DNA of 64,000 nucleotides from a virus (IMGVR_UViG_3300049044_000094); one strand, 5' to 3'; numbered from the stretch's first letter, positions 725-62,458 are shown. Notes: a model not told the origin generated them from the letters alone. Numbers and translations: made by a program.

Positions 725-737
725 AAGACCTGGTCAT
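725..737. promoter_or_regulatory. palindrome motif site 1 AAGACCTGGTCAT (1 mismatch), abuts terminase ATG
   Basis: member of 8-site ATGACCWGGTCAT family. Confidence 0.5.
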
Positions 738-739
738 TT

Positions 740-2533
740 ATGTTGGTGGGCCGACCACCGGATCTTATCAGCTATTGTTTGATCGTTGCCTGGCTCGCCA
801 CAGCATCATCGATGTTCAATGACCTGTACAACACCGTCAAGGTGCGCTTCGGCCAGGGCAGCGCCAGCATGTCGATGGGCGACTGGATCGTCGCCAACAC
901 GACCATCAAGAAGCGCCCGTTCACCTTCGAGGACTACCAGTTCCAGAAGGCGATCGCCGATGACATGCACCCGGACCTATCGGTCAAAAAGTGTTCTCAG
1001 GTCGGTCTGACTGAGGTCCAGATCCGAAAGTTCCTCGCGATCCTCACCCGTGGCAACGCGATCGCCGGCATCTTCACGCTGCCAAACGAGCGCATGTTCA
1101 CCCGGACCTACAACGCGAGGATCAAGCCGATCCTCGACGCCGACGAGGTGTTCAATCCCCCGGTCGCCAGCAATCCGGTTCGGCGACGGGATCAGATCCA
1201 GATCCGCGACAGCTTCGGATACATCACCGGTTGTACCGAGGGTGACGCGACATCGACATCAGCGGATTTCCTCATGCACGATGAGGTCGATCTCAGCCCG
1301 CAGGAGATCCTCGCGCTCTACCAGTCGCGTCTTCAGAACTCGGACATGAAGGTGACGCAGAAATTCTCGACACCGACCTTCGTCGGCTTCGGGATCGACA
1401 AATCGTACGCGCTCACCGATCAGCATGAGTATCTGGCGCTGTGCCAAGCTTGCAACCACTGGCAGATTCCACGCTTCACACCGGCCTTCATCCATCTCGA
1501 CAACTATTCGTACGAGGTCGAGAGCTTCACGGACCTGAGCGCCCAGCAGATCGCCACGCTGGATCTCTCAGGGAGTTACGTCCGCTGTGAGCAATGCCAG
1601 CGACGGCTGGATCTGGGTAATCCATCGCTGCGCGAGTGGGTGCCGATGCACCCGGGGCGGACGAATTTCCGTGGATATCAGGTCCGGCCGTTTTCAACGA
1701 GCCGACTGAAGCCGGCCTACATCTTCCAGCAGCTCGCCAAATATCAGGAGGACGGATTCCTCCGCGGCTTCTTCAATACCGTGCTGGGCGAGCCATTCAC
1801 CGAAGCCAGCGCTCAGATCCAGCGCGCCGACATCGAGAAGTGCATGGTCGGTGGCGCCATCCCGACCATTACGTCCGACGTTCCTGTGTTCCTGGGCGTC
1901 GACATCGGTTTCACCTGCCACATCACCTTGAGCTATGACGATGCCAGCGGCATGCCGGTCTTTTGCTTGTTCGAGACCGTGCCGATCGCTCATCTCGAGA
2001 CCCGCATCGCCGAGTTGCGCAAGATCTATACGATCATCCAGGGCGCTGCCGACCGTTTCCCGTTCACCCCTACGGTTGACGCGCTACGCGACGTCACCAA
2101 CGGGGTCATCATGCCGGTCCAGTATCGCGGCAACGCCGTGTTGCAGCCCGCCAAGGATGAGCTGGGGCAGATCACCCACTACTCGGCCAACCGAACTCTA
2201 ATCCTCGATCGGATCCATTCGGCCATCTCCCACCACAAGATGGTGCTGAGTGGTTACACCAGTCTCAAGGAGACATTGATTGCCCACCTGGGCGACATGG
2301 TCCGAGATGAGCAACCGGACGTCGAGGCCGAGTGGAAGAAGATCACGGGCAGCGACCACTTCTTCCACGCGATGGCTCTATCGCTTCTAGCTCGGCGGGT
2401 TTGTGATCACATGTTCCATACGCAGTCTGCCTCCGTCGCTACCAGTTCCTCGATCACGGGTGCCGACTGGTTGGGCGGTAGCACCCTGGCCGGCACCGCG
2501 ACCGGCATGAAGCGCTTGTCGAGGCTTGGCTGA
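740..2533 (+). CDS. terL: terminase large subunit
   Basis: 597-aa ORF at head of structural module, translationally coupled (TGATG) to portal gene; size, position and ATPase/nuclease-like layout; start codon abuts palindrome motif so true start may be downstream. Confidence 0.7.
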   Translation: MLVGRPPDLISYCLIVAWLATASSMFNDLYNTVKVRFGQGSASMSMGDWIVANTTIKKRPFTFEDYQFQKAIADDMHPDLSVKKCSQVGLTEVQIRKFLAILTRGNAIAGIFTLPNERMFTRTYNARIKPILDADEVFNPPVASNPVRRRDQIQIRDSFGYITGCTEGDATSTSADFLMHDEVDLSPQEILALYQSRLQNSDMKVTQKFSTPTFVGFGIDKSYALTDQHEYLALCQACNHWQIPRFTPAFIHLDNYSYEVESFTDLSAQQIATLDLSGSYVRCEQCQRRLDLGNPSLREWVPMHPGRTNFRGYQVRPFSTSRLKPAYIFQQLAKYQEDGFLRGFFNTVLGEPFTEASAQIQRADIEKCMVGGAIPTITSDVPVFLGVDIGFTCHITLSYDDASGMPVFCLFETVPIAHLETRIAELRKIYTIIQGAADRFPFTPTVDALRDVTNGVIMPVQYRGNAVLQPAKDELGQITHYSANRTLILDRIHSAISHHKMVLSGYTSLKETLIAHLGDMVRDEQPDVEAEWKKITGSDHFFHAMALSLLARRVCDHMFHTQSASVATSSSITGADWLGGSTLAGTATGMKRLSRLG

Positions 2534-4755: not shown

Positions 4756-4771
4756 CCAGAGGAGAGACCAA

Positions 4772-9841: not shown

Positions 9842-10119
<278 letters not shown>

Positions 10120-18723: not shown

Positions 18724-19393
18724 AAGCTCAGAACGCTGTTGATCTTAGCCACAGCCGCCTCGAGGTTGGCCGCCCCTGGCGTGATCGTATCTTTCGATGG
18801 CGGCGCACTAGGACCGGTGTTGTCAGTCTTGCCACCCAGCGCTGCGTTGATGATCTGAACCAAGCTGTTGTGTTGGGTGAGCTGGACCGCGGCCAGCTCC
18901 CCATATTTCAATCGCACCCGCTGGCTCAGTTCATAGAAGCTATACACCCAGTACAGCTTCTCGGCTTCATCTTCGCAAACATTGAATGCCCAGCAGATGG
19001 CGTCGTTCAGGCTGAGGCCTGAGAACCACTCGTCGAGAGCGCCAATTGCGGAAGCGCCTCTTTGAACTGGTTGCCCAGGCGAGCGAGTTCGCTCGCCTGC
19101 TGCTGAAAAAAATACAGCAGGTGCTCCGTGATCCATTTGAGCAGGTCCGACACTTCGTTCGGACCAATGTCATCCAGCTCATCGAAGTCGATCAAGTCCT
19201 CGATCTTCTCGACGGACTTCTTAACCGGCGTGAGTGCTCGACGAACTAGGTAATCCCGGGCGTAGGGATCGGTCAGCACCGTTGTGATGGCATTTTCAAC
19301 ATCGGGTACCATGCGCTGAAGATCGTTGAACAAGCCGTAGCTCATCTTGATCTCGCGGTCGCCGATCGTGATGGTGGAGTTGGGGCGTTCCAT
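18720..19393 (-). CDS. RHH-coupled protein split into two overlapping frames (128-aa ORF 19007-19393 and 138-aa ORF 18720-19136); -1 shift at T7 tract would fuse a ~245-aa product
   Basis: both frames protein-like; A7 run at 19106-19112 (T7 on coding strand) lies in the 130-nt overlap; ATG 19393 overlaps RHH stop (TAATG). Confidence 0.4.
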
Positions 19394-19590
19394 TATTCTT
19401 CGGTCTCCACGACGGCCTTGATCAGAAGCAGGCGAAGCGCCTGGTCGAGCGAGACATGCTTGCCCATCCCGAGGCGAAGAAGCTGGTTGACCTTGGCATT
19501 GAGGTTTTGGCCGTCGGCCTGGGCCAGTTCGGCAAGCTCGGTGTACATCTCGCGAGGTACCCGAACGGTGAAGCTGCGGTCTTTTGACAC
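19393..19590 (-). CDS. ribbon-helix-helix (CopG/Arc-like) DNA-binding protein
   Basis: GTG 19590 with GGAG RBS; RSFTVRVPREMYTELAELAQADGQNLNAKVNQLLRLGM is a canonical RHH strand-helix-helix. Confidence 0.55.
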   Translation of the reverse strand: MSKDRSFTVRVPREMYTELAELAQADGQNLNAKVNQLLRLGMGKHVSLDQALRLLLIKAVVETEE

Positions 19591-28040: not shown

Positions 28041-28570
28041 GTGAGCAGCACTGGACGATCGTGAACAAAGCGACCGGTCAGGTTCTGGCTCAGGTCATAA
28101 CCCCAGGTGGGCATCCCCGCTTTTACGGTTGGGATTGGGATCCCGGCACTCAGGTCGCCCGAATGACCGCGCGGCAAGGCGATCCAGCTTCGGAGATCTT
28201 CGATGGGGATGAGTGGCAACCGAATCTTGCCGCCTATCGAGCCCGGCGCTGGACTTCGCTGAAAGCGGATCGGGACGCGGCCGTAGACGGCGGATGTGAA
28301 ACACCTCTAGGGCGTGTGGATAGTGATCCGGAAAGCCGAGTGAAGATCAGCGGCGCAGTTCAGCTCGCGATGCTGTCGCCGGAATTCTCGATCGCTTGGA
28401 CGATGGAGGATAACTCAAGCGTCAACCATGACGCGGCCGCTATGATTGCCTTGGGTATTGCAGTTGGTCAGCACGTCGCACAATGCCATGCCACTGCTCA
28501 ATCTCTGCGAAGCCAGCTCGAGGCAGCTAATAGCATCGCTGAGATTGAGGCAGTGAGATGGCCGATTTAG
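28037..28570 (+). CDS. DUF4376-like tail fiber assembly protein
   Basis: ATG overlaps gpJ stop (ATGA); position and C-terminal helical pattern. Confidence 0.4.
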   Translation: MSEQHWTIVNKATGQVLAQVITPGGHPRFYGWDWDPGTQVARMTARQGDPASEIFDGDEWQPNLAAYRARRWTSLKADRDAAVDGGCETPLGRVDSDPESRVKISGAVQLAMLSPEFSIAWTMEDNSSVNHDAAAMIALGIAVGQHVAQCHATAQSLRSQLEAANSIAEIEAVRWPI

Positions 28571-29193
28571 AAGGTGCCGTTGTCGTTGAACGCCTCAATC
28601 ATCGCACCGGCTCGGCCGACCGCGGGGCGGTTGTCGATAGCGTTGCCGGTCTCGATCGCGTCCAGCATGATTGCGATCGACGCTAGGGCGTGCCCCAGAT
28701 GATGGACCCCGCTGTCGCCGGCCTTTTCCTCGCCGTCGAGGAACGAAGCGAGATGGCGTTGCGCCGCGGCGACGTAGGTCATCAACTCGACCTTCTTTTC
28801 GCGCCAATTGTAGGGCCCATATTTCGCCGCGCCGTTCATAAAGGCGTGAGCCATATGAAGCATGGCAGCCGAGGGGACGAGCGCTAGGTTCGGCTTTTTC
28901 GCGCCCATGGCGTTCTTGGGGTTGGCGTCGTCGTTGGCCGCAGTTGGGGCTACGATGGGAATGTCCGAGATCCGCTTCGTCGCCATTTCAACCACCTTAT
29001 CTACGACATCATTAACTGACACTGGATCTGAGAATTTGTTGACGTACGGCACCAACTCGGGTCCGAAGACCAACGGCTCGCGCCGCTCTGGAAATCGAAT
29101 GGTAGTGCCGTGGCCCGATACGATCTTGCCTGGCTCGAGCTTGATCGGCTGCTCCACGACAACGTGGCCTTTGGGGTCGAGGTAACTGCTCAT
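28567..29193 (-). CDS. dATP/dGTP diphosphohydrolase N-domain-like (DUF5664) protein
   Basis: NLALVPSAAMLHMAHAFMNGAAKYGPYNWRE pattern; GGAGG RBS; coupled to thyA. Confidence 0.4.
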   Translation of the reverse strand: MSSYLDPKGHVVVEQPIKLEPGKIVSGHGTTIRFPERREPLVFGPELVPYVNKFSDPVSVNDVVDKVVEMATKRISDIPIVAPTAANDDANPKNAMGAKKPNLALVPSAAMLHMAHAFMNGAAKYGPYNWREKKVELMTYVAAAQRHLASFLDGEEKAGDSGVHHLGHALASIAIMLDAIETGNAIDNRPAVGRAGAMIEAFNDNGTF

Positions 29194-30011
29194 ACTGCAA
29201 CCTCCGCAGCAATGGTAGGATAGGGATCGTAGCCGAGGAGGTGGATGTCCTCGGATTTGAAGTCGAAGACGGTGTTCACAGCACGCGCGAACCGGACGGT
29301 CGGAGCCGATCTCCCCGTGCGGCCGAGTTGCTCTTCCACCTGCTCGCGGTGGTTGAGATAAATGTGCGTGTCGCCGCCGACCCACACGAGCTTGCCGAGC
29401 CCGAGGCCAGTGGTCCAGGCGAGCATCTGCGTCAGGAGCGCGTAGCTGGCGATATTGAATGGCACGCCCAGGAACATATCCGCCGACCGCTGGTAGAGCT
29501 GGCAGCTCAGCCGATTATCGTTCGAGACATGGAACTGGAACAGGCAGTGGCATGGTGGCAGCTTCATGTCGGGGACATCCAGCGGATTCCAGGCCGACAC
29601 AATATGCCGCCGCGACCACGGGTTCTTGACGAGATCCTCGACCAAAGTCTTCATCTGGTCGACGGCGACGGGTTTGCCGTTGGAGGCGACCCCACGCCAA
29701 TCCCGCCACTGTTTGCCATAGACCGGGCCTAGCTCGCCCTTCTCGTCGGCCCACTCATCCCAGATGTGGACACTGGCCTCCTGCAGCGGCTTCACGTTTG
29801 TGCTGCCGGCCAGGAACCAGAGCAACTCCTCGACCACGCCCCGCCAATAGACCCGCTTGGTCGTGAGCAAAGGAAATTCCTTGCCGAGGTCGAAGCTCAT
29901 GCGGCCGCCAAAGATACCGACAGTTCCGACCCCGGTGCGGTCTTTGCGCTCTTCGCCGTCGCGCAGTACCTCGCGCAGCAGCGATGCGTAGGTTTGATCG
30001 GCGCGGCTCAT
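29190..30011 (-). CDS. thyA: thymidylate synthase
   Basis: full ThyA signature including PPCH and catalytic-Cys region (LPPCHCLFQF), DTHIY. Confidence 0.85.
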   Translation of the reverse strand: MSRADQTYASLLREVLRDGEERKDRTGVGTVGIFGGRMSFDLGKEFPLLTTKRVYWRGVVEELLWFLAGSTNVKPLQEASVHIWDEWADEKGELGPVYGKQWRDWRGVASNGKPVAVDQMKTLVEDLVKNPWSRRHIVSAWNPLDVPDMKLPPCHCLFQFHVSNDNRLSCQLYQRSADMFLGVPFNIASYALLTQMLAWTTGLGLGKLVWVGGDTHIYLNHREQVEEQLGRTGRSAPTVRFARAVNTVFDFKSEDIHLLGYDPYPTIAAEVAV

Positions 30012-30397
30012 ATCGAGAACTCCGGCAGGAAATAGCCGGGCTTCGGATCGAGCTTCCGAAGCGGGATCGAATAGAGCAACAGCCACGCGCCGTCGCGGCC
30101 AGTGCACATGGTGTGGGTGCCGGCTTCGAATTTGGTGCGAGCTTCGGCAATGGCGGGCTCGGTGTTATCCCAGCCCGCGGACGCTGCCTTGCGCTTGCCG
30201 ACGCGAAACTTGAGCAGCTCCGGCCGGCCTTCGCCACCCCAGCGCTCCTCACCCGAGACGATGCGGTCGGTGTTGTCATCGATGACCTGAAGAACGACGG
30301 TGACGTCGATTCCGACATTCTTCGCAGTCTTGAACGGGCTGCGAGTTCTCTTGAACTCATACAATATTTCTTCGATAATCTCGGGAGAAGGGGACAC
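30008..30397 (-). CDS. hypothetical protein
   Basis: 129-aa ORF coupled at both ends (ATGA overlaps). Confidence 0.4.
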   Translation of the reverse strand: MSPSPEIIEEILYEFKRTRSPFKTAKNVGIDVTVVLQVIDDNTDRIVSGEERWGGEGRPELLKFRVGKRKAASAGWDNTEPAIAEARTKFEAGTHTMCTGRDGAWLLLYSIPLRKLDPKPGYFLPEFSI

Positions 30398-30467: not shown

Positions 30468-30480
30468 ATGACCTGGTTAT
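30468..30480. promoter_or_regulatory. palindrome motif site 2 ATGACCTGGTTAT (1 mismatch), overlaps SbcC-like stop
   Basis: family member. Confidence 0.5.
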
Positions 30481-40052: not shown

Positions 40053-41387
40053 ATGGGGGCAGTTCAGGTCATGTTGGAGTCGTGTTCTAACGGCAATGCG
40101 GTGCATCGTCGTCAATTTGTAATCACACCGAGGGCTGACGGCCCTGCAGGATGGCCAGCAGTTCAACTGCCGGACGGGTTTCTCCTTTTCCATCATCCCG
40201 AAGCTTTCGTCACCAAGGAAGACGACGGGTACACCGTAGGGGTCAGGCTGCCCGGCGATGGCGGCCGGTTCGCACGTCTAGAGTGGCCGTACCTCCACAT
40301 TGACGTCGGTGGCATGCTTGGGGTGTTCTTCGACCCGAACCGGATGGAGGCTTCGAGCAGCGCGGCTCTTTTATACGACAATCGTACGGACCCCGTCGTT
40401 CCGCTCCTCCCTCGGAACAGCATCAACTGGTTCCCTAGCGGGCCGGTGCCACGGCTTCGACGTCTGCTGCGCGATCAGCGGCTGCACCTGCCGACGATGT
40501 CGGTAGAGGCGATAGACCGAGTGATCTCACCCCTTGGATCATTCGAAGCTGCCCAACAGGCGCTGGCTGACTCTTTGATTCAGGCAGTGCGCGCTCTCCC
40601 ACCAAGCAGTCGCGTGTTCCTGGCCCTCACAGCCGGCAAGGATTCGCGGAGCCTGGCTGCCGCCCTGATCGCCGCCGGCGTCCCGTTCGAAACCTATACG
40701 CAGACGTACCCAACCATTAAGCCGGCGGACATCTCGATCTCTCAGGAGATCTCGCAGCACCTCGGCGTGCGTCATCATGTGATCTCGCCGAGCGGACATA
40801 GTGAGGAGGTGCTGAGCGCTTGGGAGCACCACACCTGTCGGGCCATCCACGACGCCGACAACGCCTTCTTCCCCGCGGATCAATATGGCTTCGCCCGAGC
40901 CGGTGACCTCATGCTCCGCGGTGGCTGCTTCGAGGTTGGCCGCCGCTTTTACGATTGGGCGCTCCACGGGATGAACTTCGAAAACGCGACCGGTGAGCGA
41001 ATCGCTGAGCGGTTCCAGTCCACACCCGATAAGGCTGTCCCGCTCAATGACTGGCTCGCCTGGCGCCGCGCCCACCACACCGGGTTGGACCTTCTGGACG
41101 CTTTCTACCTGGATCAGCGAGTCGGCGGCTGGATGTCCGCCATCGAGCAGGGGCTGGATATGCTGCCGGCGGTTTCCCTTCATCCGGTCAACAACCTCAT
41201 GTCGTATCGTGCTCTGATCACGCCGACGATCGCCGATCGAGCCAGCGGCCGACTCCAGGTCGAGACGATCAGGAAGCTGGCACCCAGCCTCTTGAACTGG
41301 CCCTTCAATCCAGAGCCACCGACTCGGCGGACCTTCCGCTCGGTGCTGGGCGGGGCTAAGCGGCGCCTGCTGGCGCGGGTCAGGTGA
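40053..41387 (+). CDS. asparagine synthetase-like PP-loop ATPase
   Basis: PP-loop LALTAGKDSRSLAAAL (SGGxDS-type). Confidence 0.5.
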   Translation: MGAVQVMLESCSNGNAVHRRQFVITPRADGPAGWPAVQLPDGFLLFHHPEAFVTKEDDGYTVGVRLPGDGGRFARLEWPYLHIDVGGMLGVFFDPNRMEASSSAALLYDNRTDPVVPLLPRNSINWFPSGPVPRLRRLLRDQRLHLPTMSVEAIDRVISPLGSFEAAQQALADSLIQAVRALPPSSRVFLALTAGKDSRSLAAALIAAGVPFETYTQTYPTIKPADISISQEISQHLGVRHHVISPSGHSEEVLSAWEHHTCRAIHDADNAFFPADQYGFARAGDLMLRGGCFEVGRRFYDWALHGMNFENATGERIAERFQSTPDKAVPLNDWLAWRRAHHTGLDLLDAFYLDQRVGGWMSAIEQGLDMLPAVSLHPVNNLMSYRALITPTIADRASGRLQVETIRKLAPSLLNWPFNPEPPTRRTFRSVLGGAKRRLLARVR

Positions 41388-41660
41388 CGCTCATTTCGCT
41401 GCGGGGCAAATCATGAACACCGACCTCTCAATTGGTTCGCAGGCGCTGCGCTAACCTATTGAGAATTATGAGCCCGTATATATCCCCAGAAATGCGAACA
41501 ACCGCGGAAATCCGCCATTTCTGGCGGATTTTAAGTCCGCTGCGTCTACCGGTTTCGCCACGTCCGCAGTCGCAGAAATCCGCCATTTTTTGAGAGGCGG
41601 TCCTGCGAGTTCGCACTTTTGATCCGAGGAGTTCGCACTTTCTCCTTTCGTTCTGTCAGG
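41388..41660. promoter_or_regulatory. attP-like region with integrase arm-type repeats
   Basis: 4 copies of GTTCGCA/TGCGAAC, 3 copies of AAATCCGCCA (two as perfect inverted repeat), hairpin 41433-41456; adjacent to int. Confidence 0.45.
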
Positions 41661-42701
41661 TCAATACCGCTCCTCAATCACCCTCGCAGCCTGCTGGCTG
41701 TTACGGCGTTTCGTCGCATATTGCATGCCCATTTGGTAGCTGCGGTGGCCGACGAGTGCTACGATGACGCCCATCGGCTGACCTGATTCCTCGAGTCGCG
41801 CGGCTGCGGCATAGCGCAGGCCGTGGGAGGAGAGTTCGTTGCTCAGGCCGATCCGGATCACCTCCCGTTTGAGAGCCTTCATCCATGAGGTCTCATTAGA
41901 ATAGGACCGGCCATTCTCCTGGACGAGGAGGGTTGGGGCATCGGGGAACGGGCGCGCATCAAGAGCCTCCCGTAGCTGACGAGGGGTCGCGATCGGGAGC
42001 AGTTCGTTGGTCTTCTGCTGGCGGCATTCAACCTCGCCGCCGAGATACCTTTCCCGCTCCATCCGGATGACATCACCGGCGCGTTGACCGGTGTAGAGAT
42101 GGAGGATCAGCCCGAGCCGGACATGCGGTTTGAACTCGGCGATCGCCTTGGCGATCTCAGGCTCGCTCCACGGCTTGTAGCCCTTGCCGGGGAGCTTCAG
42201 CTTCTTGATGCCCTTGGCCTGATTCTCCTTGAGGAGCTGCCGGTTGATGCCCCAGTTCGACAGGATCGAGATCACCTGGACGGCATAGTTCGCCTTGCGG
42301 ATGTTGCCTTCCGACAGCGTGTCGCGAATCTTGAGCACCGCCGCCCGCGTCAGTTTGGCCAGCGGGAGGTCACCGGCTTTCTGTTCCAGGTGGTCCATTA
42401 CGCCATCGTAATCCCTCCGGGATCGCGCAGCGAGCTGCCGGTATTCGGGGGAGGCCCGGTATTCGCGAACGAACCAGGAGAGGCTGTGCAGGGCTGGCCC
42501 GGTACGGCTCGGTCGTCCCTCCAGTCGCTGGATCTCCGCGAGGAAGTCGCTGTATTGCCGATGAAATTCAGGCTCCCCCGGATTTCCCGGGAGAGCCCTG
42601 TCGCCAGTTAGACGGTGTCGGAAGCGCCAATAGCGCCCCTTGGCTTGATAGGTGAACTTAGGTCGCTGCGCCGAAGCGGGCGAGGAATGGATCTTCTTCA
42701 T
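41661..42701 (-). CDS. int: tyrosine integrase
   Basis: C-terminal catalytic region HGLRYAAAARL..LVGHRSYQMGMQYA (R..H..R..Y). Confidence 0.85.
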   Translation of the reverse strand: MKKIHSSPASAQRPKFTYQAKGRYWRFRHRLTGDRALPGNPGEPEFHRQYSDFLAEIQRLEGRPSRTGPALHSLSWFVREYRASPEYRQLAARSRRDYDGVMDHLEQKAGDLPLAKLTRAAVLKIRDTLSEGNIRKANYAVQVISILSNWGINRQLLKENQAKGIKKLKLPGKGYKPWSEPEIAKAIAEFKPHVRLGLILHLYTGQRAGDVIRMERERYLGGEVECRQQKTNELLPIATPRQLREALDARPFPDAPTLLVQENGRSYSNETSWMKALKREVIRIGLSNELSSHGLRYAAAARLEESGQPMGVIVALVGHRSYQMGMQYATKRRNSQQAARVIEERY

Positions 42702-42909
42702 TGCTTTCCGATTGAATTCCGAACTGTCGGTCTATCATGCGGTCGAGGTCGTCTTTCAGCCAGAACACCATCCCACCCTCGCGCTGGCCAGGAGGGTAGG
42801 AACCCTCCTGGACCTTGCGACGAAACGTGGCCTCGGAGACGCCCACATAGAAGGCGGCGAGCGCCTCGCGTAGCCGTCTAGGAACGAAGGCCGGTGCTGC
42901 CGAAGCCAT
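42658..42909 (-). CDS. xis: excisionase / AlpA-like HTH protein
   Basis: [42 protein letters not shown] matches AlpA/Xis HTH. Confidence 0.6.
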
Positions 42910-43318
42910 TCTCGCCTCTTGCTGTGTTGCTCAGCTCAGACACCTCCACCGGCTCCGCCTTGGTCACCGGTGCCAGCACGAGCTGGGCAATTCGGTCGCC
43001 CCGGCTGACGGTGGCGGCCGTGGCTCCGGTGTTGAGGAGGATCACGCCGATCTCACCGCGATAGTCCTCATCGATGGTGCCGGGTGTGTTGATGATGGTG
43101 ATGCCCTGCTTGAGCGCCAGACCAGAACGGGGGCGGACCTGAAGCTCGTGCCCGGCGGGCACTTCGACGGCAAAACCGGTCCTCATGAGGTGCCGGCCGC
43201 CGGCGATGATGCGGGCGTCGTCTGCCGCCACCACATCCATGCCAGCGGCGCCGGGGGTGGCGTAAGCGGGGAGGGGCAGACCCTCACCGTGTGGCAGTCG
43301 CTTGAGCTTCAGTTCCAT
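42878..43318 (-). CDS. dut: dUTP diphosphatase
   Basis: Dut motifs [30 protein letters not shown]. Confidence 0.85.
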
Positions 43319-44988: not shown

Positions 44989-45966
44989 CTACGCATCATA
45001 TGACCAGGTCATTCGGTCTTTTATGAAGTCCCGAACTTCCGGATCGACGTCGGCTAGGGCCTCCGTCATCACCTTGTCCCAGTCGAATGCGTTGAGATTG
45101 ACCTGCTCCGCCTCGGTGGCTTCGGCCTGGGCGCGGATCGACGTCATCGCCATGCAGTCGATGTCGGTCGGCAGCTCTTCGCCCTCGGCCAGGACTACGC
45201 GGACGCATTTGTCGGTCCAGGCCTCGGGTGTCTCGAGCACCTCGGCGAGCGACCGGGTGACGTAGATCAGCTCGTTCGGATCCTCGCCGTGGCTGTAGGG
45301 CTCGAGGGAGCCGGTGCAGTGGACGCCACCGACCTCGCCCTCGATATGGTAGTGGCCGGAATAGATGTCCGTGATGCCGAGCGCGTTCAGCTCGGCAACC
45401 GGGGCGAGGTGGCTGTCGTCGCCGCCGTAGCTCTGGAGATCCCAGTGGCCGATGGCCACCTTTATCTGCTCGTCCTCGCCCCAGCCGTCTTTGTTGAAGA
45501 TGTGAGCAGCGGGGATCTGATCAACAGCACTGATACCCCACTGCCAAGGGAACAGGGCCACATCCCCGACCCAACAGGGCTCGCGAGCGACCCGGAGGTT
45601 CTCGAGCCGGCCATTCACCATCTGCTCGAACGCATCCCAGGCGCCGACCACGCCCAGGTTGCGGGGGAGGTCGTGGTTGCCCGCCATGTCGATGAAGGTT
45701 GTATATGGATGGGCCCGAGCCGCGGCGAGGACGGCCTCGGCCGCCTCGACCACGACCCCGAACCCGACGTAGGGATGATCAAAAAGATCGCCGACCATGA
45801 TGTTGTAGTCGACGCCGGGGGTGTTCAGCTCGGCGACGAACTTGGCGAATTGGCGCTTTTCGCGCTCGCCGCGGCGGTGGAGGGGAACCCCTGTCTCGAA
45901 CTTGCGTCCGAGATGGGGGTCCCCGATCAGCCAGGCCGTTTTGCCTGAGGGGAGGGTAATCAACAC
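44989..45966 (-). CDS. SbcD/Mre11-like metallophosphoesterase nuclease
   Basis: motifs GDPHLG, VGDLFD, AGNHD, GHWD, SGHYH; GTG start. Confidence 0.7.
   Translation of the reverse strand: MLITLPSGKTAWLIGDPHLGRKFETGVPLHRRGEREKRQFAKFVAELNTPGVDYNIMVGDLFDHPYVGFGVVVEAAEAVLAAARAHPYTTFIDMAGNHDLPRNLGVVGAWDAFEQMVNGRLENLRVAREPCWVGDVALFPWQWGISAVDQIPAAHIFNKDGWGEDEQIKVAIGHWDLQSYGGDDSHLAPVAELNALGITDIYSGHYHIEGEVGGVHCTGSLEPYSHGEDPNELIYVTRSLAEVLETPEAWTDKCVRVVLAEGEELPTDIDCMAMTSIRAQAEATEAEQVNLNAFDWDKVMTEALADVDPEVRDFIKDRMTWSYDA
44999..45011. promoter_or_regulatory. palindrome motif site 4 ATGACCAGGTCAT (perfect), encodes C-terminal codons of SbcD-like gene
   Basis: family member. Confidence 0.55.
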
Positions 45967-50363: not shown

Positions 50364-51148
50364 AGAAAATACCTTGAGAGCAGGGCTTCGCCCTGCGGGA
50401 TATCGGTTTGGCCGACTGTGATGCCGGCGTTCAGCTCGTCGTCGGGGACGGTGTGGAAATGGGTGATGAGCAGCATGTTCTGCAGCTCGGCGATGTTGTC
50501 AGGATCGAGCAGCCAGTTTGCCACCGATTTTGTGACCGGGAGCCCGACAAACCCCGCTGGGTCACCAGCGACTATGGCACGTTCAAACTGGGCCCAATGA
50601 TCGCCCAGATTGTCCCACGCCTTGGGTCCGAAACCTGGGATACCAGAGATGTTGTCGGACGGGTCGCCGCGGGTTGCCTTATACAAAGGGATCCACCGCG
50701 CCGTCAGAGCCGAGTTGGGCTTGCGAACGCCGTTCAGCGTAACATTCGGCATTTCCTCGAGCTGTGCGTAGTCGAGGTCGTTGGTGTGGATCGTGACGTC
50801 GGTGCCGCGGCCGGCGAACTGGCGGGCGAGGGTGAAGATGACGTCGTCCGCCTCCCACCCCTTGCACTCGATCTGAATGCCGGGGGACAGCGTCAACAGT
50901 TCACGCCAGAGCTTGATCTGCGCGAACATGTCCTCCGCCATCGGCGTGCGGTTGGCCTTGTACGCTGGGTAGATTTCCTTGCGGCGCCGGTTATGGTCAT
51001 AGCCATCCCACACCCAGATCTGGGTGTGGAGCGGGGCGGCCAGGGTGGTGTGATAGCGCATACGCATCGACATCGGCTTCTCTGATGGGAGAAGCTGCTT
51101 CGACATCGCACGGAGCATCACGTTGTTTCCGTCGTAGATGTGGATCAT
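50360..51148 (-). CDS. 5'-3' exonuclease / flap endonuclease
   Basis: YKANR, GWEADDV, ATRGDPSDNISGIPGFG motifs. Confidence 0.75.
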   Translation of the reverse strand: MIHIYDGNNVMLRAMSKQLLPSEKPMSMRMRYHTTLAAPLHTQIWVWDGYDHNRRRKEIYPAYKANRTPMAEDMFAQIKLWRELLTLSPGIQIECKGWEADDVIFTLARQFAGRGTDVTIHTNDLDYAQLEEMPNVTLNGVRKPNSALTARWIPLYKATRGDPSDNISGIPGFGPKAWDNLGDHWAQFERAIVAGDPAGFVGLPVTKSVANWLLDPDNIAELQNMLLITHFHTVPDDELNAGITVGQTDIPQGEALLSRYFL

Positions 51149-51462
51149 TCAGGAGCGACCAGTCCACGCAAATAGCGCACCGCCTCGAAAAATACGGGGT
51201 CGGTGCGCAGCAATTCCTTGGCCTTTGCGCATCCGAGCGCGACGGCCTTGTGGTCCTTGTCGATCATCTTGCCGGTGCGATTGAGCGACCAGCCAACATG
51301 TTCGACGAGGACATGGCAAAGAGCCCAGCGAGCCAGGCTTGGGCGACCACGGCGCCGGCTCGAGAAAATAGTGCCTTCGCTGAGGTCATAAAAATGCTCG
51401 GCCGCGGCAACGAGGCGAGGCCCCAGGTTTTGCCTGGGGCCTCGGGCAGTCAGATCAGACAA
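51145..51462 (-). CDS. DnaA domain IV-like HTH protein
   Basis: SSRRRGRPSLARWALCHVLVEHVGWSLNRTGKMIDKDHKAVALGCAKAKELLRTDP parallels the DnaA C-terminal DNA-binding fold. Confidence 0.5.
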   Translation of the reverse strand: MSDLTARGPRQNLGPRLVAAAEHFYDLSEGTIFSSRRRGRPSLARWALCHVLVEHVGWSLNRTGKMIDKDHKAVALGCAKAKELLRTDPVFFEAVRYLRGLVAPE

Positions 51463-52232: not shown

Positions 52233-52245
52233 AAGACCTGGTCAT
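52233..52245. promoter_or_regulatory. palindrome motif site 5 AAGACCTGGTCAT (1 mismatch), overlaps helicase stop
   Basis: family member. Confidence 0.5.
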
Positions 52246-53982
52246 TTATGCTGCAAATTGAAGAACAGGTCGGGTTGGATCGACCTTGTTCGCCAACTGC
52301 GATTTGTGCGCCAGGATCTCATACTGGCGCCTGTCTATGGTGTCCTCATATTCGAGTGAGGTGACACGCAGGGTCTTGGTCCGCGTGCCACGACTGGCCC
52401 GTCGATAGGCCTGGATGTAGTTCACGTCCTGATAGTCGACGGATGGGTAGATGACGTGGTCGGCTCGTTCCCAATTGTAGCCGACGCCGGCAGTGGGGCC
52501 GGAGGCGACGATGACATCGAGCTGACCATTGCGGAAAGCTTGGTCGATTTCGTTGCGCTTGTTGAAGGATACGTCGGAGTTGATGAGGCCGGTGCGAAGA
52601 CCGCAGTCCTGCATCAATTTGACGATGCGGCGTTGTTCAGGTTTGAGGGCAGCGAAGATGAGCATCGGCTGCCCCTCGGCGGCGTAAATGCGAAGACGCT
52701 GGTCCTTGCCAGTCTCTTCGCCCTTGGCGATCCCCATCGTCTCGGGGTGACCAAGGATCTGGCGGGCTCTGATCACGGCAACGCCGGGCAGCGTGCCGTC
52801 GAGCACCTCCATATTCTCAAGCTCGAGCATGGCCTGTTCGTGGAACAGGTCATATTGGGCGCGGCATTTGGGCCCGACCTCCACCAGCTCGTGGAAGAAG
52901 ACCACGTCTTCCTTGCCATAGGCCTGCTCGAAGGTGACCTGCCGGCTGTGGCGCTCCAGGATTTGTCTGACCTTGTCTTCGTTGTTCCAGACAAGGACGC
53001 GGCCGTAGTTGTCCATGAAGCCTGCATGCTCGTTCAGGAACCCGGCGTGACTGCCATAATAGCGCGGCTCGATGACGTGGATCGCAGGGAAGGCGCTGTC
53101 GAGCTGGCCGTCCACGAGCGAGCCGGTCATCCCGACGAAATTTTCGCAGTGCTGGTTGATGTAGTAGAAGCTCTGTGTCTGCTCGCTCTCCGGTCGCTTG
53201 TAACCAAGGTGCAGCTCATCGACGAGGAACAGGTCGATATCGGGATGGGTGTCGAGCAGGCGCTGCCAGTGCGATCGCAGGAAGGCGAACGACACGATGA
53301 ACACCTTCGCGTCGGCCGCGGCCGCGATCAGGTCGATCGCTTCCTCGTCCTCGGTGACGTTCTTTTCGTATTGTGGCGCGCCGCTCGGGCCGAGGACGGC
53401 GGTCACAATCACCGAAGTGGTGGGATCATAAACGGCAGGATCGACCAGCGCCTTGCCGACGCGATAGGCGTGCGGCGGCTGACATCCAGGTTGGACCGGA
53501 CCCTGCAGCTCCACGCGCTCGATCGGGGTGATCCCCTGCTTCTCCAATGCGTACGTGTGCGTCCGCCGCACCGTCACGCCGCTGGCACGGGCGTCGGCGA
53601 TGCGGACGGCGAGGCTGCGGATTTTCTTCTGCCGAACGATCGTCGGCCCGGTCCAGCTCTTCGTCAAGGGAGCATGGTCGCTCTCGAGGATGACCACGTC
53701 GTCCTCGGCGAACTCGGTGAATTTCACCATCTCACCGCGGTTCTTTTTCATGAGCGACAAAGGCATCGCCCACACGGTCTTCTTCTGACGACGCTCCCAG
53801 TGGAACCAGGACAGCACGCACACGGTGGGCGTCTTGCCGGTTCCGGGGTGGCTGGTGTTGAGGGATTTCTTGGCGGCTATGTGGAAGCCGAGATGTTCGA
53901 TCTGATAGTCTCGGAGGGTGGGGGCGTCAGTCGACATGATGAGCAGAAAGCTCGGTGATCGCCTTGGCCAGCTCTTGTGCAT
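52246..53982 (-). CDS. SNF2-family helicase
   Basis: motif I HPGTGKT, motif II DELH, C-terminal helicase domain; start may be 53937. Confidence 0.7.
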   Translation of the reverse strand: MHKSWPRRSPSFLLIMSTDAPTLRDYQIEHLGFHIAAKKSLNTSHPGTGKTPTVCVLSWFHWERRQKKTVWAMPLSLMKKNRGEMVKFTEFAEDDVVILESDHAPLTKSWTGPTIVRQKKIRSLAVRIADARASGVTVRRTHTYALEKQGITPIERVELQGPVQPGCQPPHAYRVGKALVDPAVYDPTTSVIVTAVLGPSGAPQYEKNVTEDEEAIDLIAAAADAKVFIVSFAFLRSHWQRLLDTHPDIDLFLVDELHLGYKRPESEQTQSFYYINQHCENFVGMTGSLVDGQLDSAFPAIHVIEPRYYGSHAGFLNEHAGFMDNYGRVLVWNNEDKVRQILERHSRQVTFEQAYGKEDVVFFHELVEVGPKCRAQYDLFHEQAMLELENMEVLDGTLPGVAVIRARQILGHPETMGIAKGEETGKDQRLRIYAAEGQPMLIFAALKPEQRRIVKLMQDCGLRTGLINSDVSFNKRNEIDQAFRNGQLDVIVASGPTAGVGYNWERADHVIYPSVDYQDVNYIQAYRRASRGTRTKTLRVTSLEYEDTIDRRQYEILAHKSQLANKVDPTRPVLQFAA

Positions 53983-57736: not shown

Positions 57737-57895
57737 TCAATGAACAGTGGAACGGTGGAGATCGTAGAGGACACGAAGCTCGGCGAGGTCCTCGGCAGTG
57801 CCCTCCATTTCGGCAAGGGCGTCCTCATGGCGCTGATGGGCAGCCCCGTAATCAATAGCGGCTTCGATGATCTCGTCGATCAAATCGTCGGGCAC
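57737..57895 (-). CDS. small acidic protein (52 aa)
   Basis: GTG 57895 with GGAGAC RBS directly after terminator. Confidence 0.3.
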   Translation of the reverse strand: MPDDLIDEIIEAAIDYGAAHQRHEDALAEMEGTAEDLAELRVLYDLHRSTVH

Positions 57896-57906
57896 GGTGG
57901 GTCTCC

Positions 57907-57943
57907 AAAAGAAAGACCCCGACCAGCTATACTGATCGGGGTC
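57907..57943 (-). terminator. rho-independent terminator downstream of RNR gene
   Basis: GACCCCGA-13 nt-TCGGGGTC then TTTCTTTT on minus strand. Confidence 0.5.
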
Positions 57944-57966
57944 TCGGGTCTCGCAAATAGAAAGAA

Positions 57967-57979
57967 ATGACCTGGTCTT
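57967..57979. promoter_or_regulatory. palindrome motif site 6 ATGACCTGGTCTT (1 mismatch), overlaps nrdJ stop
   Basis: family member. Confidence 0.5.
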
Positions 57980-60623
57980 ATGAACCGCAGATGCCGCCGC
58001 CGCGCAGGTCACAGATGTCGACATGCTCTTCGGCGAACTCCTGGCCCTCATGGAGGATCGCCTCCTGATAGGAGACCGGCGTCAGCGGCTGGCCGCCGCG
58101 GGCGCCGTTGGGATAGGCAGTGAAACCACGCAGGCGCGGAGCAAAGCGGGCGAGGGTGTCGGCGAAGCCGGCGACGGTGTCCTCGTTGTTGTGTTCGCTG
58201 CCCCACTCAGGGAGGTTGATCGTCGAGCTGATCGCCATGTCGACATAGTCCTGAATGTCGGCCTGGAATGCGATCCGGCGCTCGTAGTCGGTGGCGAGAT
58301 CGATGGCGCTTTCGATGTTGTCGGGATCGGCGCCATAGTTCTGGATCATCTCCTTGGCGGTGCCGTCGACGACGAACTGGTAGTGCCAGTCGGTGCCGCT
58401 CTTCAGGTAGCGCCGCTTGTAGGCGACGGCGAACAAGGGCTCGATGCCGGTGGTGGTTCCCGCCATAATGCCAATAGTTCCCGTAGGAGCGATCGCTCGG
58501 TTCGCGACAGGGCGCGAAATCGAGAGAGCATCCGCAAATTCCGCAGACACTCGATCGCTGCAGTCTCGGTAAACACCGAGCCAATTGTGAAGTTCGGGGA
58601 CGACTTCATATCGGTACCCCCTCTTGATGAGCCATTCATGGACGCCCATCAGGCCGAGTCCAAGGCGCCGGTTCTTCTCCCGGACGTCATAGACCTTGCC
58701 GTAGGGCAACTTTGCGCGGAGCGTTCCGCAGATCAGGAACATCGTCGCGAGGCGGATGACGTCCCGCAACTCGTCGATGGTCTCGATGCGGCCGAGGTTG
58801 AGCGAGCCCAGATTGCAGACGTCGCTGTCGTCCTCGGACGTCACCTCGGTGCAATTTGAAATGATTACACCTTCAGCGCAGAAGCTGTGTTCTTCGACGC
58901 CTACGTCGCAACAGAAAACATCCTGGTTAACGTCGGGAACGACCGACACCACCCGCACGACGTAGTGGCGATATGCCTCATACGCTTCAACCTGCAACCT
59001 GACGGTTGGAATGAGTCTCGCGAACTCCGTTGTGGAACTAGACGCAACCACTAGGTTGAACGCTTTGTTACCGCCAAAGCCGGAGGTCACGGGAGACGAG
59101 ATGTAGGCTTGGATGCCAAGCTCTTCGAGCAGTCGACGAACCGAATTGAGCACGTTGAGATTGACGCTGGAAAGCCTGATGGTACCTCGATCAGCATCAT
59201 AGGAGCCATCAGCATCGAAAAGTCCCGCGAGGAACGACGCTCTAGCCGAGTGAGCGACGAAAGGCAGCTTGTCCTTGGTCTGTCCGTCAAAGAACCCATC
59301 ATAACCATATGCTCGGATATATCCACGGCTGTCACACCAATTGATGGTGTCGAACTGATCAGCAATGCGATCAAAGCAAACTTTCTTGCTCTCATGACAG
59401 ATTGCTAGGTCGATCTTCGACCCAATGTTATGACCATCGCCGAAAATGAAACCCCGCTTATATGCTTGAGCGTCGAAAGCCGAACGCTCGGCCTGGGGTA
59501 AAGAAACGTGAAGACGATCATCAGGCTGAAGCTGACCGGCGGGAACTTTCACAATCTCGACAGCCTTCTTTTCGCCTTTGCCGGACCATCGTTCGACAAA
59601 GAATTCATGTTCGGGATCAGCGACAATCTCACGTCCGCCCGACATGCTTACCCGCACGGTGGGAACCCCGCTCTTTGTCTTCACAAACCTGGCCGGTGCC
59701 CACTGCTTGCCAGTCCAAACAGAGACCTCGCGGTTGACGATCTCTGAGACCTGAACATAACCATCACTCGTAAGAACCTTCGTGTCCGCTGCAACAGGAG
59801 CATTGCGCAGCGTTTCGTTCGATTTCGCGCCGAAGTTGAAGCTGAAGCCGGGCTCGGCCGTCTTGAGTGCCTGGCGCACGTTGGTGAGAAAAATATCGCC
59901 CACCTGGCCTGTTTGCTGGAACGAAGCCAGCCAAGCGTCGTCGTAGTTGAGGCTGATGTTGGTCATGTCCAACGGACACGGCCAGTTGAAGTCTTTGTTC
60001 TTGAGATCGGCAAGGGTGAGATCGGTGCCGGGGACAGGATACCGGTCCCAGTCCTTAATGACGAGGAAGTCCCTCGCGTCTGGGTGGCTCCAGATGAGGG
60101 AGGCGTAAATCGCACTACGGCGACTGCCTCCCTGCATCACACGGCGACCGATCTCATTGATCATCTCCATCTTCGGCAATGGCCCGCTCGCAACACCCCC
60201 TGTGCGGGCGATGGGTGAGCCGGCGCCGCGGTAGCGCGAATAGTCGTTGCCAATGCCACCGCCGGTCATCAGGCAGGACTCAGCCTTCCAGCTGAGGTCT
60301 GCCCAATCCTCGCGAGTGTCCTCTTCCGAGCGAAGGAGATAACAGTTGTTGAAAAACGGATTAGGCCGGCCGGCGTAGTACAAATAACGCCCGCCAGGAA
60401 TAAATTTCATCTCGGCAATATACTGTGCCAACTGCGTCATGTCGCCCAAAGTCATGTATCGGGCGCAAACATCGGCTACGAGAGTGTCCGCAAGATCATC
60501 CCACGTTTCACATCCATCGTGCCGATATTTTTGATTGAAGATGTCGAGGCTAAACTGAGAACGAAAGGGCGACGTCATGACTGGTTCGGCTCCTGAAATA
60601 GGGCCGTCCCATCTACTGATCAC
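57978..60623 (-). CDS. nrdJ: class II (B12-dependent) ribonucleotide reductase, interrupted by an intein
   Basis: 881 aa; extein junction RNA|CTEV reconstitutes an N(P)CGE-like catalytic-Cys loop; GTG start. Confidence 0.75.
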   Translation of the reverse strand: MISRWDGPISGAEPVMTSPFRSQFSLDIFNQKYRHDGCETWDDLADTLVADVCARYMTLGDMTQLAQYIAEMKFIPGGRYLYYAGRPNPFFNNCYLLRSEEDTREDWADLSWKAESCLMTGGGIGNDYSRYRGAGSPIARTGGVASGPLPKMEMINEIGRRVMQGGSRRSAIYASLIWSHPDARDFLVIKDWDRYPVPGTDLTLADLKNKDFNWPCPLDMTNISLNYDDAWLASFQQTGQVGDIFLTNVRQALKTAEPGFSFNFGAKSNETLRNAPVAADTKVLTSDGYVQVSEIVNREVSVWTGKQWAPARFVKTKSGVPTVRVSMSGGREIVADPEHEFFVERWSGKGEKKAVEIVKVPAGQLQPDDRLHVSLPQAERSAFDAQAYKRGFIFGDGHNIGSKIDLAICHESKKVCFDRIADQFDTINWCDSRGYIRAYGYDGFFDGQTKDKLPFVAHSARASFLAGLFDADGSYDADRGTIRLSSVNLNVLNSVRRLLEELGIQAYISSPVTSGFGGNKAFNLVVASSSTTEFARLIPTVRLQVEAYEAYRHYVVRVVSVVPDVNQDVFCCDVGVEEHSFCAEGVIISNCTEVTSEDDSDVCNLGSLNLGRIETIDELRDVIRLATMFLICGTLRAKLPYGKVYDVREKNRRLGLGLMGVHEWLIKRGYRYEVVPELHNWLGVYRDCSDRVSAEFADALSISRPVANRAIAPTGTIGIMAGTTTGIEPLFAVAYKRRYLKSGTDWHYQFVVDGTAKEMIQNYGADPDNIESAIDLATDYERRIAFQADIQDYVDMAISSTINLPEWGSEHNNEDTVAGFADTLARFAPRLRGFTAYPNGARGGQPLTPVSYQEAILHEGQEFAEEHVDICDLRGGGICGS
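58854..59795 (-). mobile_element. intein with LAGLIDADG homing endonuclease inside nrdJ (approx. aa 277-590)
   Basis: Hint block A PVAADTKVLTSDG; LAGLIDADG motifs GFIFGDG and FLAGLFDADGSY; ends ..VIISN before Cys; GC drops to ~50% over this stretch. Confidence 0.5.
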
Positions 60624-60652
60624 AAATTCCGCTGTCTCGGCCAGCAGACCTT

Positions 60653-60665
60653 ATGACCAGGTCAT
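60653..60665. promoter_or_regulatory. palindrome motif site 7 ATGACCAGGTCAT (perfect), 30 bp upstream of nrdJ GTG
   Basis: family member. Confidence 0.55.
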
Positions 60666-61353: not shown

Positions 61354-61579
61354 CTCTCAGAAATACTCCTTCATATAGCTCCCGAACATCATCCGGGACC
61401 TGAACCTTGCTGGGGTCGACGCTATTCCTGGCATCGTTCAAGAGTCTGATCTTGTCGGGGTCGTTGGCGATGGCATCCGGCGATGAATGGCGCAGCCATG
61501 CGTCGCTCAGCGCAGCCAAAAGATCGATCACGACTTGATCTCGGTTTGTCACGGTTGTTTTCCTCCTGGAGTCCTCCAT
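61337..61579 (-). CDS. hypothetical protein
   Basis: 80 aa. Confidence 0.3.
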   Translation of the reverse strand: MEDSRRKTTVTNRDQVVIDLLAALSDAWLRHSSPDAIANDPDKIRLLNDARNSVDPSKVQVPDDVRELYEGVFLRDVWAD

Positions 61580-61633
61580 TTCATACGCAGGGTTGCCGAG
61601 GTTGTCACATGACAGATTGGTGAGCGCCGCGCA

Positions 61634-62458
61634 TTAAGCGGCCAACAAATGACCAGGTCTTTTCTCCCTTTTTGATGGATTCACGAAACCGCTAATATCG
61701 CTGCGACCACGCACTCCCTTTGCCTTGAGGCCCACAACAACGCCGTCGGGGTCCGCGGGGCGATAGTCGTGCTCATCTCCGTTGATGACGGGGAGCGTCT
61801 GACCGCCAATGGTAAACGAATCGGGTAGGTCCGAAGTGGCGAAAACCACTGCGAGGTTTCTGCCCCGTTTAAGCTCCAAAATGGAGGCGTTCACGTTGTG
61901 TTCCTTCAGTGAGAACGTCAAATGGTAGTTCGCATTCGGCTGCCGATTCGGGATTGCCGTGTAGTCATAGAACGAGACTGCACCTGTAGGAAATATCCTA
62001 TCGATCGTCGTCATTTTCCTATCGATGCCGAGAGCGGCCGCAACCTCGGGGTAAAGTGTGAAGCCTTTTCGCTCCCAAACGATATCGCTGGTGGCGTTGA
62101 GGCGGACGGCGGCTTCCATGTTGCGGCGATCGGCCCGGCGAATGTGCTGGGCGATCTCGAGAGCCAGGATATTGAGGAAGAGATCGCGGTCGCTGAACAG
62201 AAGGCGCGTCTTACGAATTCGGCCGGCGTTCTTCGCTGCCATATACGCCGGCGAGCCGGCGAAGTGCAGACACGCAGCCGTGCAGCCTGGCGAGCGCTTC
62301 GGACATACCTCGTGGCCCGACAAATTTGCCGGTGCGAGGTGAAGGACCGCGGTGAGCACGCCGAGCTTGCCATTCTTTTTGACCTTCGGGTTGCTGTCGA
62401 TGTCAGACAGCAGTTGTCGAACCCCCGCGCGGACGCGGAGATCACTGAGCAAAGACAT
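61634..62458 (-). CDS. Cys/His-rich hypothetical protein (zinc-binding?)
   Basis: HEVCPKRSPGCTAACLHFAG cluster; 274 aa. Confidence 0.4.
   Translation of the reverse strand: MSLLSDLRVRAGVRQLLSDIDSNPKVKKNGKLGVLTAVLHLAPANLSGHEVCPKRSPGCTAACLHFAGSPAYMAAKNAGRIRKTRLLFSDRDLFLNILALEIAQHIRRADRRNMEAAVRLNATSDIVWERKGFTLYPEVAAALGIDRKMTTIDRIFPTGAVSFYDYTAIPNRQPNANYHLTFSLKEHNVNASILELKRGRNLAVVFATSDLPDSFTIGGQTLPVINGDEHDYRPADPDGVVVGLKAKGVRGRSDISGFVNPSKREKRPGHLLAA
61649..61661. promoter_or_regulatory. palindrome motif site 8 ATGACCAGGTCTT (1 mismatch), 76 bp upstream of gene 61337-61579
   Basis: family member. Confidence 0.5.

Follow-up and report, generated by a model that had tools for sequence, protein, structure and literature searches.

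The uncultured viral genome IMGVR_UViG_3300049044_000094 was analysed as a single stretch of 64,000 nucleotides (hereafter, the window; 60% G+C), in which a 13-bp palindromic box recurs at gene junctions. The window is approximately 64 kb of an approximately 80-kb siphophage genome that resembles Caulobacter phage Seuss and Achromobacter phage JWF and includes an integrase gene. Its terminase is 42–44% identical to those of JWF and Seuss, which are 80–85-kb siphophages with terminal repeats. A near-identity search of 49 kb against 50,697 phage records returned no close DNA relative, and no terminase relatives were found in the genomes of 185,579 species. A Logan contig (L067), identical to the window over a 2.9-kb overlap, added 4.8 kb on the left. 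Set against an 82-kb relative, the genome is still short of about 14 kb, which a ligase-based metagenome scan did not recover. Structural and lysis genes form a rightward block, and a leftward array encodes DNA ligase, NrdJ, a helicase, a 5'–3' exonuclease, a family-A DNA polymerase, a GapR-like protein, a dUTPase, an excisionase-like helix-turn-helix (HTH) protein and an integrase. We rejected the idea that the box is a promoter for a phage RNA polymerase: the 887-amino-acid (aa) protein is the family-A DNA polymerase, and a PhoD-like phosphatase, an exonuclease and tail proteins account for the remaining large products. Since there is no RNA polymerase among the large proteins of the phage, host RNA polymerase must transcribe the genome.

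The box, ATGACCWGGTCAT, is a dyad with two 6-nt half-sites around a single central nucleotide, a form that it has in every lineage examined. With one mismatch or fewer, it occurs seven times in the window, starting at 725, 30468, 45000, 52233, 57967, 60653 and 61649, and a copy with two mismatches starts at 32472. These positions agree with those listed in a preliminary description of the window, except that the copy placed there at 44999 starts one base later. When two mismatches were allowed, we counted 12 matches, compared with 1.00 ± 1.06 (largest, 4) in 100 dinucleotide-preserving shuffles, in line with the earlier claim that the copies are non-random. The remaining two-mismatch matches (2714, 36821, 53690 and 54592) lie within genes and are consistent with chance. 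No match with one mismatch or fewer was present in 875 kb of other viral loci or in 481 kb of loci with 55–66% G+C. A ninth copy, AAGACCTGGTCAA, with two mismatches, was found at 890–902 of L067, 3.9 kb to the left of the window. The box is genuine and phage-specific and most likely regulatory, with a regulon of at least nine junctions.

All eight copies in the window are intergenic or lie within 15 nt of a stop codon, in keeping with the gene-boundary positions of the preliminary description. On our rough gene map, non-coding DNA and positions no more than 15 nt before a stop codon make up 13% of the window, and because all eight copies fall in this fraction, the placement has a p value of ~9e-8. 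The distance from the edge of the box to the next start codon bearing a ribosome-binding site (RBS) is 50–96 nt, with a median of about 72. The leftmost copy (AAGACCTGGTCAT, 725–737; box coordinates carry no strand) lies in the divergent region between a 176-aa gene (minus strand), whose ATG at 672 is 52 nt away, and the gene for the terminase large subunit. The terminase open reading frame (ORF) has its ATG at 740, and relatives align only from residue 20–25; the conserved Met at 812 is 74 nt from the box. The terminase box therefore probably does not abut the true start, contrary to the earlier suggestion. The copy ATGACCTGGTTAT (30468–30480) is directly 3' of the TGA stop of an SbcC-like gene (30481–32421, minus) and 70 nt upstream of GTG 30397. 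The degenerate copy AGGATCAGGTCAT (32472–32484, two mismatches) occupies the divergent region between the SbcC-like and endolysin genes; the SbcC-like ATG at 32421 is 50 nt away, and the endolysin ORF begins with ATG 32489, 4 nt past the box.

Farther right, a perfect box (ATGACCAGGTCAT, 45000–45012) lies in the last 8 codons of a 325-aa SbcD-like gene, 72 nt upstream of the ATG at 44927 of a gene for a small membrane protein, which is followed by the GapR-like gene. The copy at 52233–52245 (AAGACCTGGTCAT) is directly 3' of the TAA stop of the helicase gene (52246–53982, minus) and 88 nt upstream of ATG 52144. The nrdJ gene has a box on either side: ATGACCTGGTCTT (57967–57979) overlaps its TAA stop by 2 nt and is 71 nt upstream of GTG 57895, and a perfect box (ATGACCAGGTCAT, 60653–60665) is 74 nt upstream of ATG 60578, which is probably the nrdJ start, rather than GTG 60623. 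The last copy, ATGACCAGGTCTT (61649–61661), is in the last codons of a GP88-family gene (61634–62458, minus); like the copy at 45000, it falls in the final 8–9 codons of the upstream gene. It is 96 nt upstream of GTG 61552, where an 80-aa gene probably starts, given its AGGAGG RBS; the ATG of the 80-aa ORF is at 61579. A 52-aa gene with a good RBS (57737–57895, minus) starts at GTG 57895, right after the terminator-like hairpin described below, so that the following cupin-like gene probably starts at ATG 57729.

We then compared the window with related uncultured phages from IMG/VR whose terminases are 54–71% identical to that of the window. At the position of the window's copy at 725, a palindrome was present upstream of the terminase gene in 13 out of 15 loci, about 70 nt upstream of the conserved Met, and its sequence was specific to each lineage; no such palindrome was evident in the other two loci, L061 and L063. 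The versions upstream of terminase were GTGACTnAGTCAC for type A (several phages), GTTACCAGGTAAC for type B and AGTCGCnnnGCGACT for type C, the last also being carried by a second type-C phage. Altogether, the lineage versions of the box comprise GTGACTnAGTCAC, GTGACCSGGTCAC, an RGTAAC-type box, TCACTGAGTGA (type D) and AGTCGCnnnGCGACT; the further variant GTGACCSGGTCAC / AAGTGACCSGGTCACTT has four copies in one 2.7-kb contig. Every variant fits the template T-N-R-C-Y-N-R-G-Y-N-A, and this single template suggests that the binders are homologous. An initial IMG/VR search pattern, AATGACCWGGTCATT, was discarded as too strict, since it matches none of the window's copies, and its 49 single matches represent chance.

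Other junctions showed the same behavior. The preliminary description had nrdJ and the SbcC-like gene each bracketed by boxes. For nrdJ, bracketing by the local palindrome was seen in four lineages (the window and types A, B and D), and the downstream box overlaps the nrdJ stop codon in types A, B and D, as it does in the window; for SbcC, the single match among relatives was distant (33% identity) and uninformative. In four relatives (L085, L084, L089 and L095, respectively), the box before nrdJ is at 9896, 6590, 9883 and 9905, and the box after it is at 11635, 8329, 11657 and 11642. A box follows the helicase gene at 15868 in L085, 12948 in L084 and 14858 in L089, and one precedes the 80-aa gene at 8658, 5353 and 8926 in the same three loci. 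One type-A phage, assembled to 46.8 kb, carries 14 boxes: eight at junctions of a single leftward gene array of about 35 kb, five in one AT-rich non-coding cluster and one in the terminase divergent region. Caulobacter phage Seuss, which is too distant for this comparison, has no recurring palindrome and has an AT-rich, promoter-like region upstream of terminase.

Because the positions are kept while the sequence is replaced genome-wide in each lineage, the box behaves as a cis-acting site that has followed a change in the specificity of its trans-acting factor. Such concerted change would not be expected from chance, from a host repeat or from a recombination scar. The reading that the preliminary description put first, sites for one phage regulator or promoter-associated elements, is favored by this pattern. 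Its suggestion of a module boundary for mosaic recombination is not, as the flanking genes stay syntenic while the motif changes. More broadly, we consider it very improbable that the box is non-regulatory, that is, a recombination or module boundary, a target for nicking or for a homing endonuclease, a site related to restriction-modification or an acquired host repeat. The phage does have SbcCD-like nuclease genes and an intein homing endonuclease within nrdJ. The box core, CCWGG, is a Dcm/EcoRII-type site, and the central pentamers of three variants (CCWGG, CCSGG and CTNAG) presumably match type II restriction sites, which we counted in favor of a non-regulatory origin. By contrast, the box changes within a conserved gene order, the reverse of what a recombination hotspot would do; boxes keep their place with respect to promoter-like elements; and no copies occurred in the other viral DNA examined. 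Moreover, a scan of the 185,579 species' genomes for AAGACCWGGTCATTT gave at least 120 single matches in scattered taxa, with no clusters among the matches listed; approximately 2,000 were expected by chance, and the listed matches fit chance.

To characterize the surroundings of the box, we aligned the sites on the box, oriented toward the next gene. The oriented alignment has an A+T peak 36–41 nt after the box. We scored promoters as a TTGAC-like hexamer starting 9–19 nt after the box, a 16–18-nt spacer and an xTAxxx hexamer. A score of at least 6 was reached by 7 out of 20 oriented sites, compared with 6.7% of random positions and 1 out of 14 sites in the opposite direction. In lineages outside the design of the score, 5 out of 7 junction sites reached it, with the −10 hexamer always 36–38 nt after the box; this second set is the only independent one, and it includes homologous positions. 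In the nrdJ leaders of six lineages, which are otherwise divergent, the invariant columns, apart from those of the box and the RBS/ATG, include the 'GAC' of the −35 hexamer, and an alignment read by eye places 'TA' 18–19 nt past this 'GAC' in 6 out of 6 leaders. Between types A and B, the nrdJ region has identical −35 (TTGGAC) and −10 (CTTACT) hexamers, and the 17-bp spacer differs. In the window, alignment and scoring together place a putative sigma-70-type nrdJ promoter at 60611–60639 (minus), with −35 CGAGAC at 60634–60639 and −10 GTAGAT at 60611–60616. We infer that a sigma-70-like promoter lies downstream of most boxes, with its −35 hexamer (…GAC) usually 12–14 bp after the box and its −10 hexamer (xTA…) 17–18 bp farther on. 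The center of the box would then lie near −54 (−45 to −55), and transcripts would start about 25 nt before the RBS.

Terminators are also found at some of these junctions. A strong terminator-like hairpin with a T-run (57913–57945, minus) lies between the box at 57967 and the next gene; its loop holds a predicted −10 hexamer (GTATAG, 57927–57932), the predicted −35 being TTGCGA at 57951–57956. The same arrangement follows nrdJ in relatives. Within about 110 bp, one unit ends and the next begins. At some junctions, the terminator that closes the preceding unit appears to overlap the predicted promoter. The box itself does not form such a structure. With its flanks, it folds at 0 to −2.9 kcal/mol, no stronger than −0.7 in six of the eight cases, and mismatches within the dyad are not compensated. 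A scan of the window at Rfam gathering thresholds found nothing at the boxes, its only result being a weak tRNA-like match at 41493–41567. On these three grounds we ruled out a function at the RNA level. The earlier statement that the dyad is not an RNA terminator was correct; the terminator-like hairpins lie separately, downstream of the motif.

A related possibility is that the box, as DNA or RNA, recruits a factor that controls read-through of a hairpin 20–35 nt farther downstream, much as nut, ops or a roadblock does. The box does abut or overlap the upstream stop codon, a terminator-like hairpin follows it after nrdJ in the window and in relatives, and the same box–hairpin order is seen in the leader of one early operon. 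In relatives, the better-conserved half-site and a TT(G) flank face downstream at all gene-junction sites, which would also suit such a signal. Nevertheless, T-run hairpins are found after some boxes only; no co-directional gene lies upstream of the boxes at 725 and 32472, which occupy divergent regions; the RNA hairpin of the motif is negligible, with its mismatches uncompensated; and Pfam scans revealed no NusG-, N- or Q-like protein. We therefore consider a termination or antitermination signal improbable.

The explanation we prefer, and hold to be somewhat probable, is that the box is the cis-regulatory site of one phage-encoded dimeric DNA-binding protein and heads most transcription units. 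Under this explanation, an early phage regulator would activate the rather weak junction promoters from the upstream box, in the style of a class I activator, and, where boxes overlap very strong AT-rich early promoters, as in relatives, it would repress those promoters. Activation and repression by one protein would constitute an early-to-middle switch. In relatives, the boxes of the cluster lie over or directly beside very strong AT-rich promoter elements (CCCTATATAT/TATAAT and CTATAT), and a terminator-like hairpin lies between the clustered boxes and the first small genes. The position of the clustered boxes on strong promoter elements suggests repression, and that of the junction boxes upstream of weak promoters suggests activation. 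A more elaborate version, which we regard as rather unlikely, is that box, overlapping terminator and promoter form a standard 'junction module' punctuating the ~35-kb co-directional array. A fast-evolving small regulator, either a winged-HTH (wHTH) protein or a member of an unclassified five-helix family (p79), would then set whether transcription stops, reads through or restarts, and box switching would define transcriptional 'specificity types', analogous to immunity groups.

In a type-A relative (L053, 4885–5067), we observed three tandem 61-bp repeats, each with one box, directly 3' of the stop codon of a 198-aa gene. These repeats adjoin the AT-rich CCCTATATAT region common to types A, B and C, and the tandem-repeat region may be an early control region or an origin.

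We examined several proteins as candidate binders. The best candidate regulator within the window is a 96-aa wHTH protein encoded by a fast-evolving gene at 62569–62859 (minus). It has a Pfam HTH_24/AsnC-type match (E = 7e-4) below the curated cut-off, and its structural model, of low confidence (pLDDT 64), has a winged-helix topology, with weak best fold matches to ArsR/SmtB and MarR regulators. Searching for homologues with the wHTH protein retrieved no other protein. Across all the loci compared, a profile search yielded four lineages, in which homologues were 20–28% identical between box types, compared with 53–65% for neighboring genes; the recognition helix DTARRRLN was identical in two type-A phages that share a box. 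The second candidate, p79 (79 aa; L067 542–778, left of the window), is encoded one or two genes past a box in six lineages and gave no sequence match in Pfam or PDB. Its C-terminal helix is kept in four type-A phages and differs in other types; p79 also differs between two type-C phages. For both proteins, the putative recognition helix is kept within type A and changed between types, a pattern that relatedness could explain. Directly upstream of the wHTH RBS, we also noted an inverted repeat (62861–62914) with 26-nt arms that are 85% complementary and separated by 2 nt. As no T-run follows, an operator or an RBS-sequestering structure is likelier than a terminator. Ahead of the wHTH gene, type-A relatives carry another repeat, TAGGAAACTTCCTA.

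Other proteins were set aside. The DNA-contact segment of the DnaA-domain-IV-like protein (51145–51462), one of the binders proposed in the preliminary description, differs between two phages with the same box. The corresponding segment varies in the 169-aa HTH protein (L067 18–527; like p79, encoded 4.0–4.8 kb left of the window) among phages sharing one box. A GcrA-like candidate, also proposed there, was not found by Pfam in the proteins scanned.

Several observations weigh against the idea of a single regulator acting from upstream of junction promoters. The promoter score was devised after inspection of the sites. The gap between the box and the −35 hexamer varies, being 3 bp before the type-A 80-aa gene and 12–14 bp elsewhere. 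The boxes upstream of terminase have no such promoter in three out of four lineages, and only 4 nt separate the endolysin ORF from its box. Of the window copies, five have the better half-site (TT flank) on the downstream side and two have it on the upstream side, a difference that is not significant. A box center near −54 is unusual for a repressor yet not diagnostic of an activator. Both candidate binders are weak: the inverted repeat that precedes the wHTH gene differs from the box, and a p79 homologue (P0001; 65% identical, pLDDT 90.6) is modeled as a generic helical bundle.

The opposite sign of regulation, with a global immunity repressor as the binder, is nearly as likely as the activating one, because the phage encodes an integrase and an excisionase-like protein and carries a tRNA-like sequence that is a likely attP and because the type-B relative is found within a 1.18-Mb metagenome contig. 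As a complete account, in which a lysogen repressor on every box silences promoters or read-through and box divergence reflects new immunity types, we advance it tentatively. It would accommodate the clustered boxes that overlap strong early promoters in relatives and the many specificities among fairly close relatives, and the weak best fold matches of the low-confidence wHTH model are to ArsR/MarR-type repressors. Stoperators, too, are present in up to ~30 copies per genome and diverge between subclusters along with their repressors (PMC6550527; PMC9283540). On the other hand, most boxes lie upstream of the predicted −35 hexamer, rather than over the core promoter or downstream of it, and the 50–96 nt kept before the next gene would be needless for a pure roadblock. 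In the 47 kb examined of one relative, no divergent repressor gene was found beside a box cluster, and the box is palindromic, as opposed to the asymmetric stoperator bound by a monomer (PMC9283540).

The features that bear on lysogeny are as follows. Genes for the excisionase-like HTH_17 protein and the integrase (41387–41661 and 41661–42909) adjoin the tRNA-like sequence at 41493–41567, a weak match (32 bits in Rfam) that ARAGORN did not call. Two direct-repeat pairs, CGCRGAAATCCGCCATTT and GAGTTCGCACTTT, are also present in the integrase region, and the tRNA-like sequence and direct repeats together are likely to represent attP with arm sites. The type-B relative (IMG/VR 3300005841_000936) occupies 443723–464535 of the 1.18-Mb contig L163 (Ga0207641_10000001), which suggests either an integrated prophage or a misassembly.

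Among known systems, the stoperators of Cluster A mycobacteriophages such as L5 and Bxb1 have motifs that diverge with the regulator between related phages (PMC6550527; PMC9283540). The stoperator is an asymmetric site at which a monomeric two-domain repressor stops elongation (PMC9283540). Like stoperators, the boxes are 13-bp sites scattered at gene junctions and probably belonging to one phage regulator, with eight copies in 64 kb and one just outside, all at junctions, and 14 in 47 kb of one relative. Unlike stoperators, the box is a dyad that usually stands upstream of a promoter-like −35/−10 pair, and no homologous repressor was found. Stoperators keep mostly to one orientation relative to transcription, with which the five-to-two split in the window and the uniformly downstream-facing junction sites of relatives may be compared. 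Phage activators provide a second comparison: Ogr/Delta of P2/P4 (a dyad near −55), Mor/C of Mu and p4 of phi29 act at dyads upstream of the −35 hexamer of weak host-type promoters, and p4 also represses early promoters. The box resembles these sites in being a dyad upstream of a predicted −35 hexamer and in presumably defining one regulon. Ogr/Delta, Mor/C and p4 boxes serve a few late operons, whereas the box described here precedes the helicase–polymerase block and the nrdJ, SbcC, lysis and terminase units alike. Pfam and PHROG scans found no Ogr-like zinc-finger or Mor/C-like protein.

Temperate actinophages also carry palindromic operators. The 'conserved inverted repeats' of phiC31 and the palindromes of Cluster O mycobacteriophages occur in many intergenic copies next to phage promoters. 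The box shares with them the many intergenic copies of one inverted repeat beside predicted promoters; the host phylum and the sequence differ, and no related repressor was identified. Finally, the restriction-modification C-box is GACT-N3-AGTC, and C-proteins, which are small dimers, serve as activators at one site and as repressors at another. The type-A box, GTGACT-N-AGTCAC, carries the same GACT/AGTC half-sites, but the spacing is 1 nt rather than 3 and the sites are genome-wide. Protein family scans detected neither an Xre-type (HTH_3) C-protein nor restriction-modification genes.

Dispersed sites for a phage regulator are already known, and the box alone establishes no new principle. What is new is the box family, its siting at junctions of stop codon, terminator and promoter, and the repeated switching of specificity between lineages. 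The box provides a ready map of transcription units for uncultured ~80-kb Seuss/JWF-like phages, a group with no studied regulation so far. At orthologous positions, its variants make up a natural series with six or more operator specificities, suited to the study of joint specificity change in a regulator and about ten dispersed sites. The series could also supply orthogonal regulator/operator pairs for hosts of high G+C content.

We made several further observations on the same genomes. A second, unrelated palindrome family, TGGGAAATTTCCCA, occupies intergenic gaps downstream of a Prim-Pol gene, with copies at 1051–1064, 1389–1402 and 2116–2129 of L067 (3.8–2.7 kb left of the window) and at 2806, 5358, 5607 and 6313 of L053; it was not present in the window proper. 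This palindrome has one and the same sequence in type-A relatives and the window's genome, but the type-B version is TGGGACnnGTCCCA and the type-C version TGGGTAnnTACCCA. It may mark an origin or serve a second regulator. The nrdJ gene (57978–60578, minus) encodes about 320 aa more than the nrdJ of relatives, and its residues ~296–574 match Intein_splicing, LAGLIDADG_3 and Hom_end, corresponding to an intein with a homing endonuclease. In the minus-strand gene at 28567–29385, we found a MazZ-like dATP/dGTP diphosphohydrolase N-terminal domain (E = 6e-25); the gene adjoins a thymidylate-synthase-family gene with an N-terminal extension (29190–30107, minus). Together with a dUTPase/dCTP-deaminase-like gene at 42878–43318, these genes hint at non-canonical nucleotide metabolism or DNA modification. 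Within the tail-gene block, a 65-aa Arc-like ribbon-helix-helix protein (19396–19590) and a 128-aa protein are encoded antisense to their surroundings (19007–19590, minus), and this gene pair is kept in the type-C relative L058.

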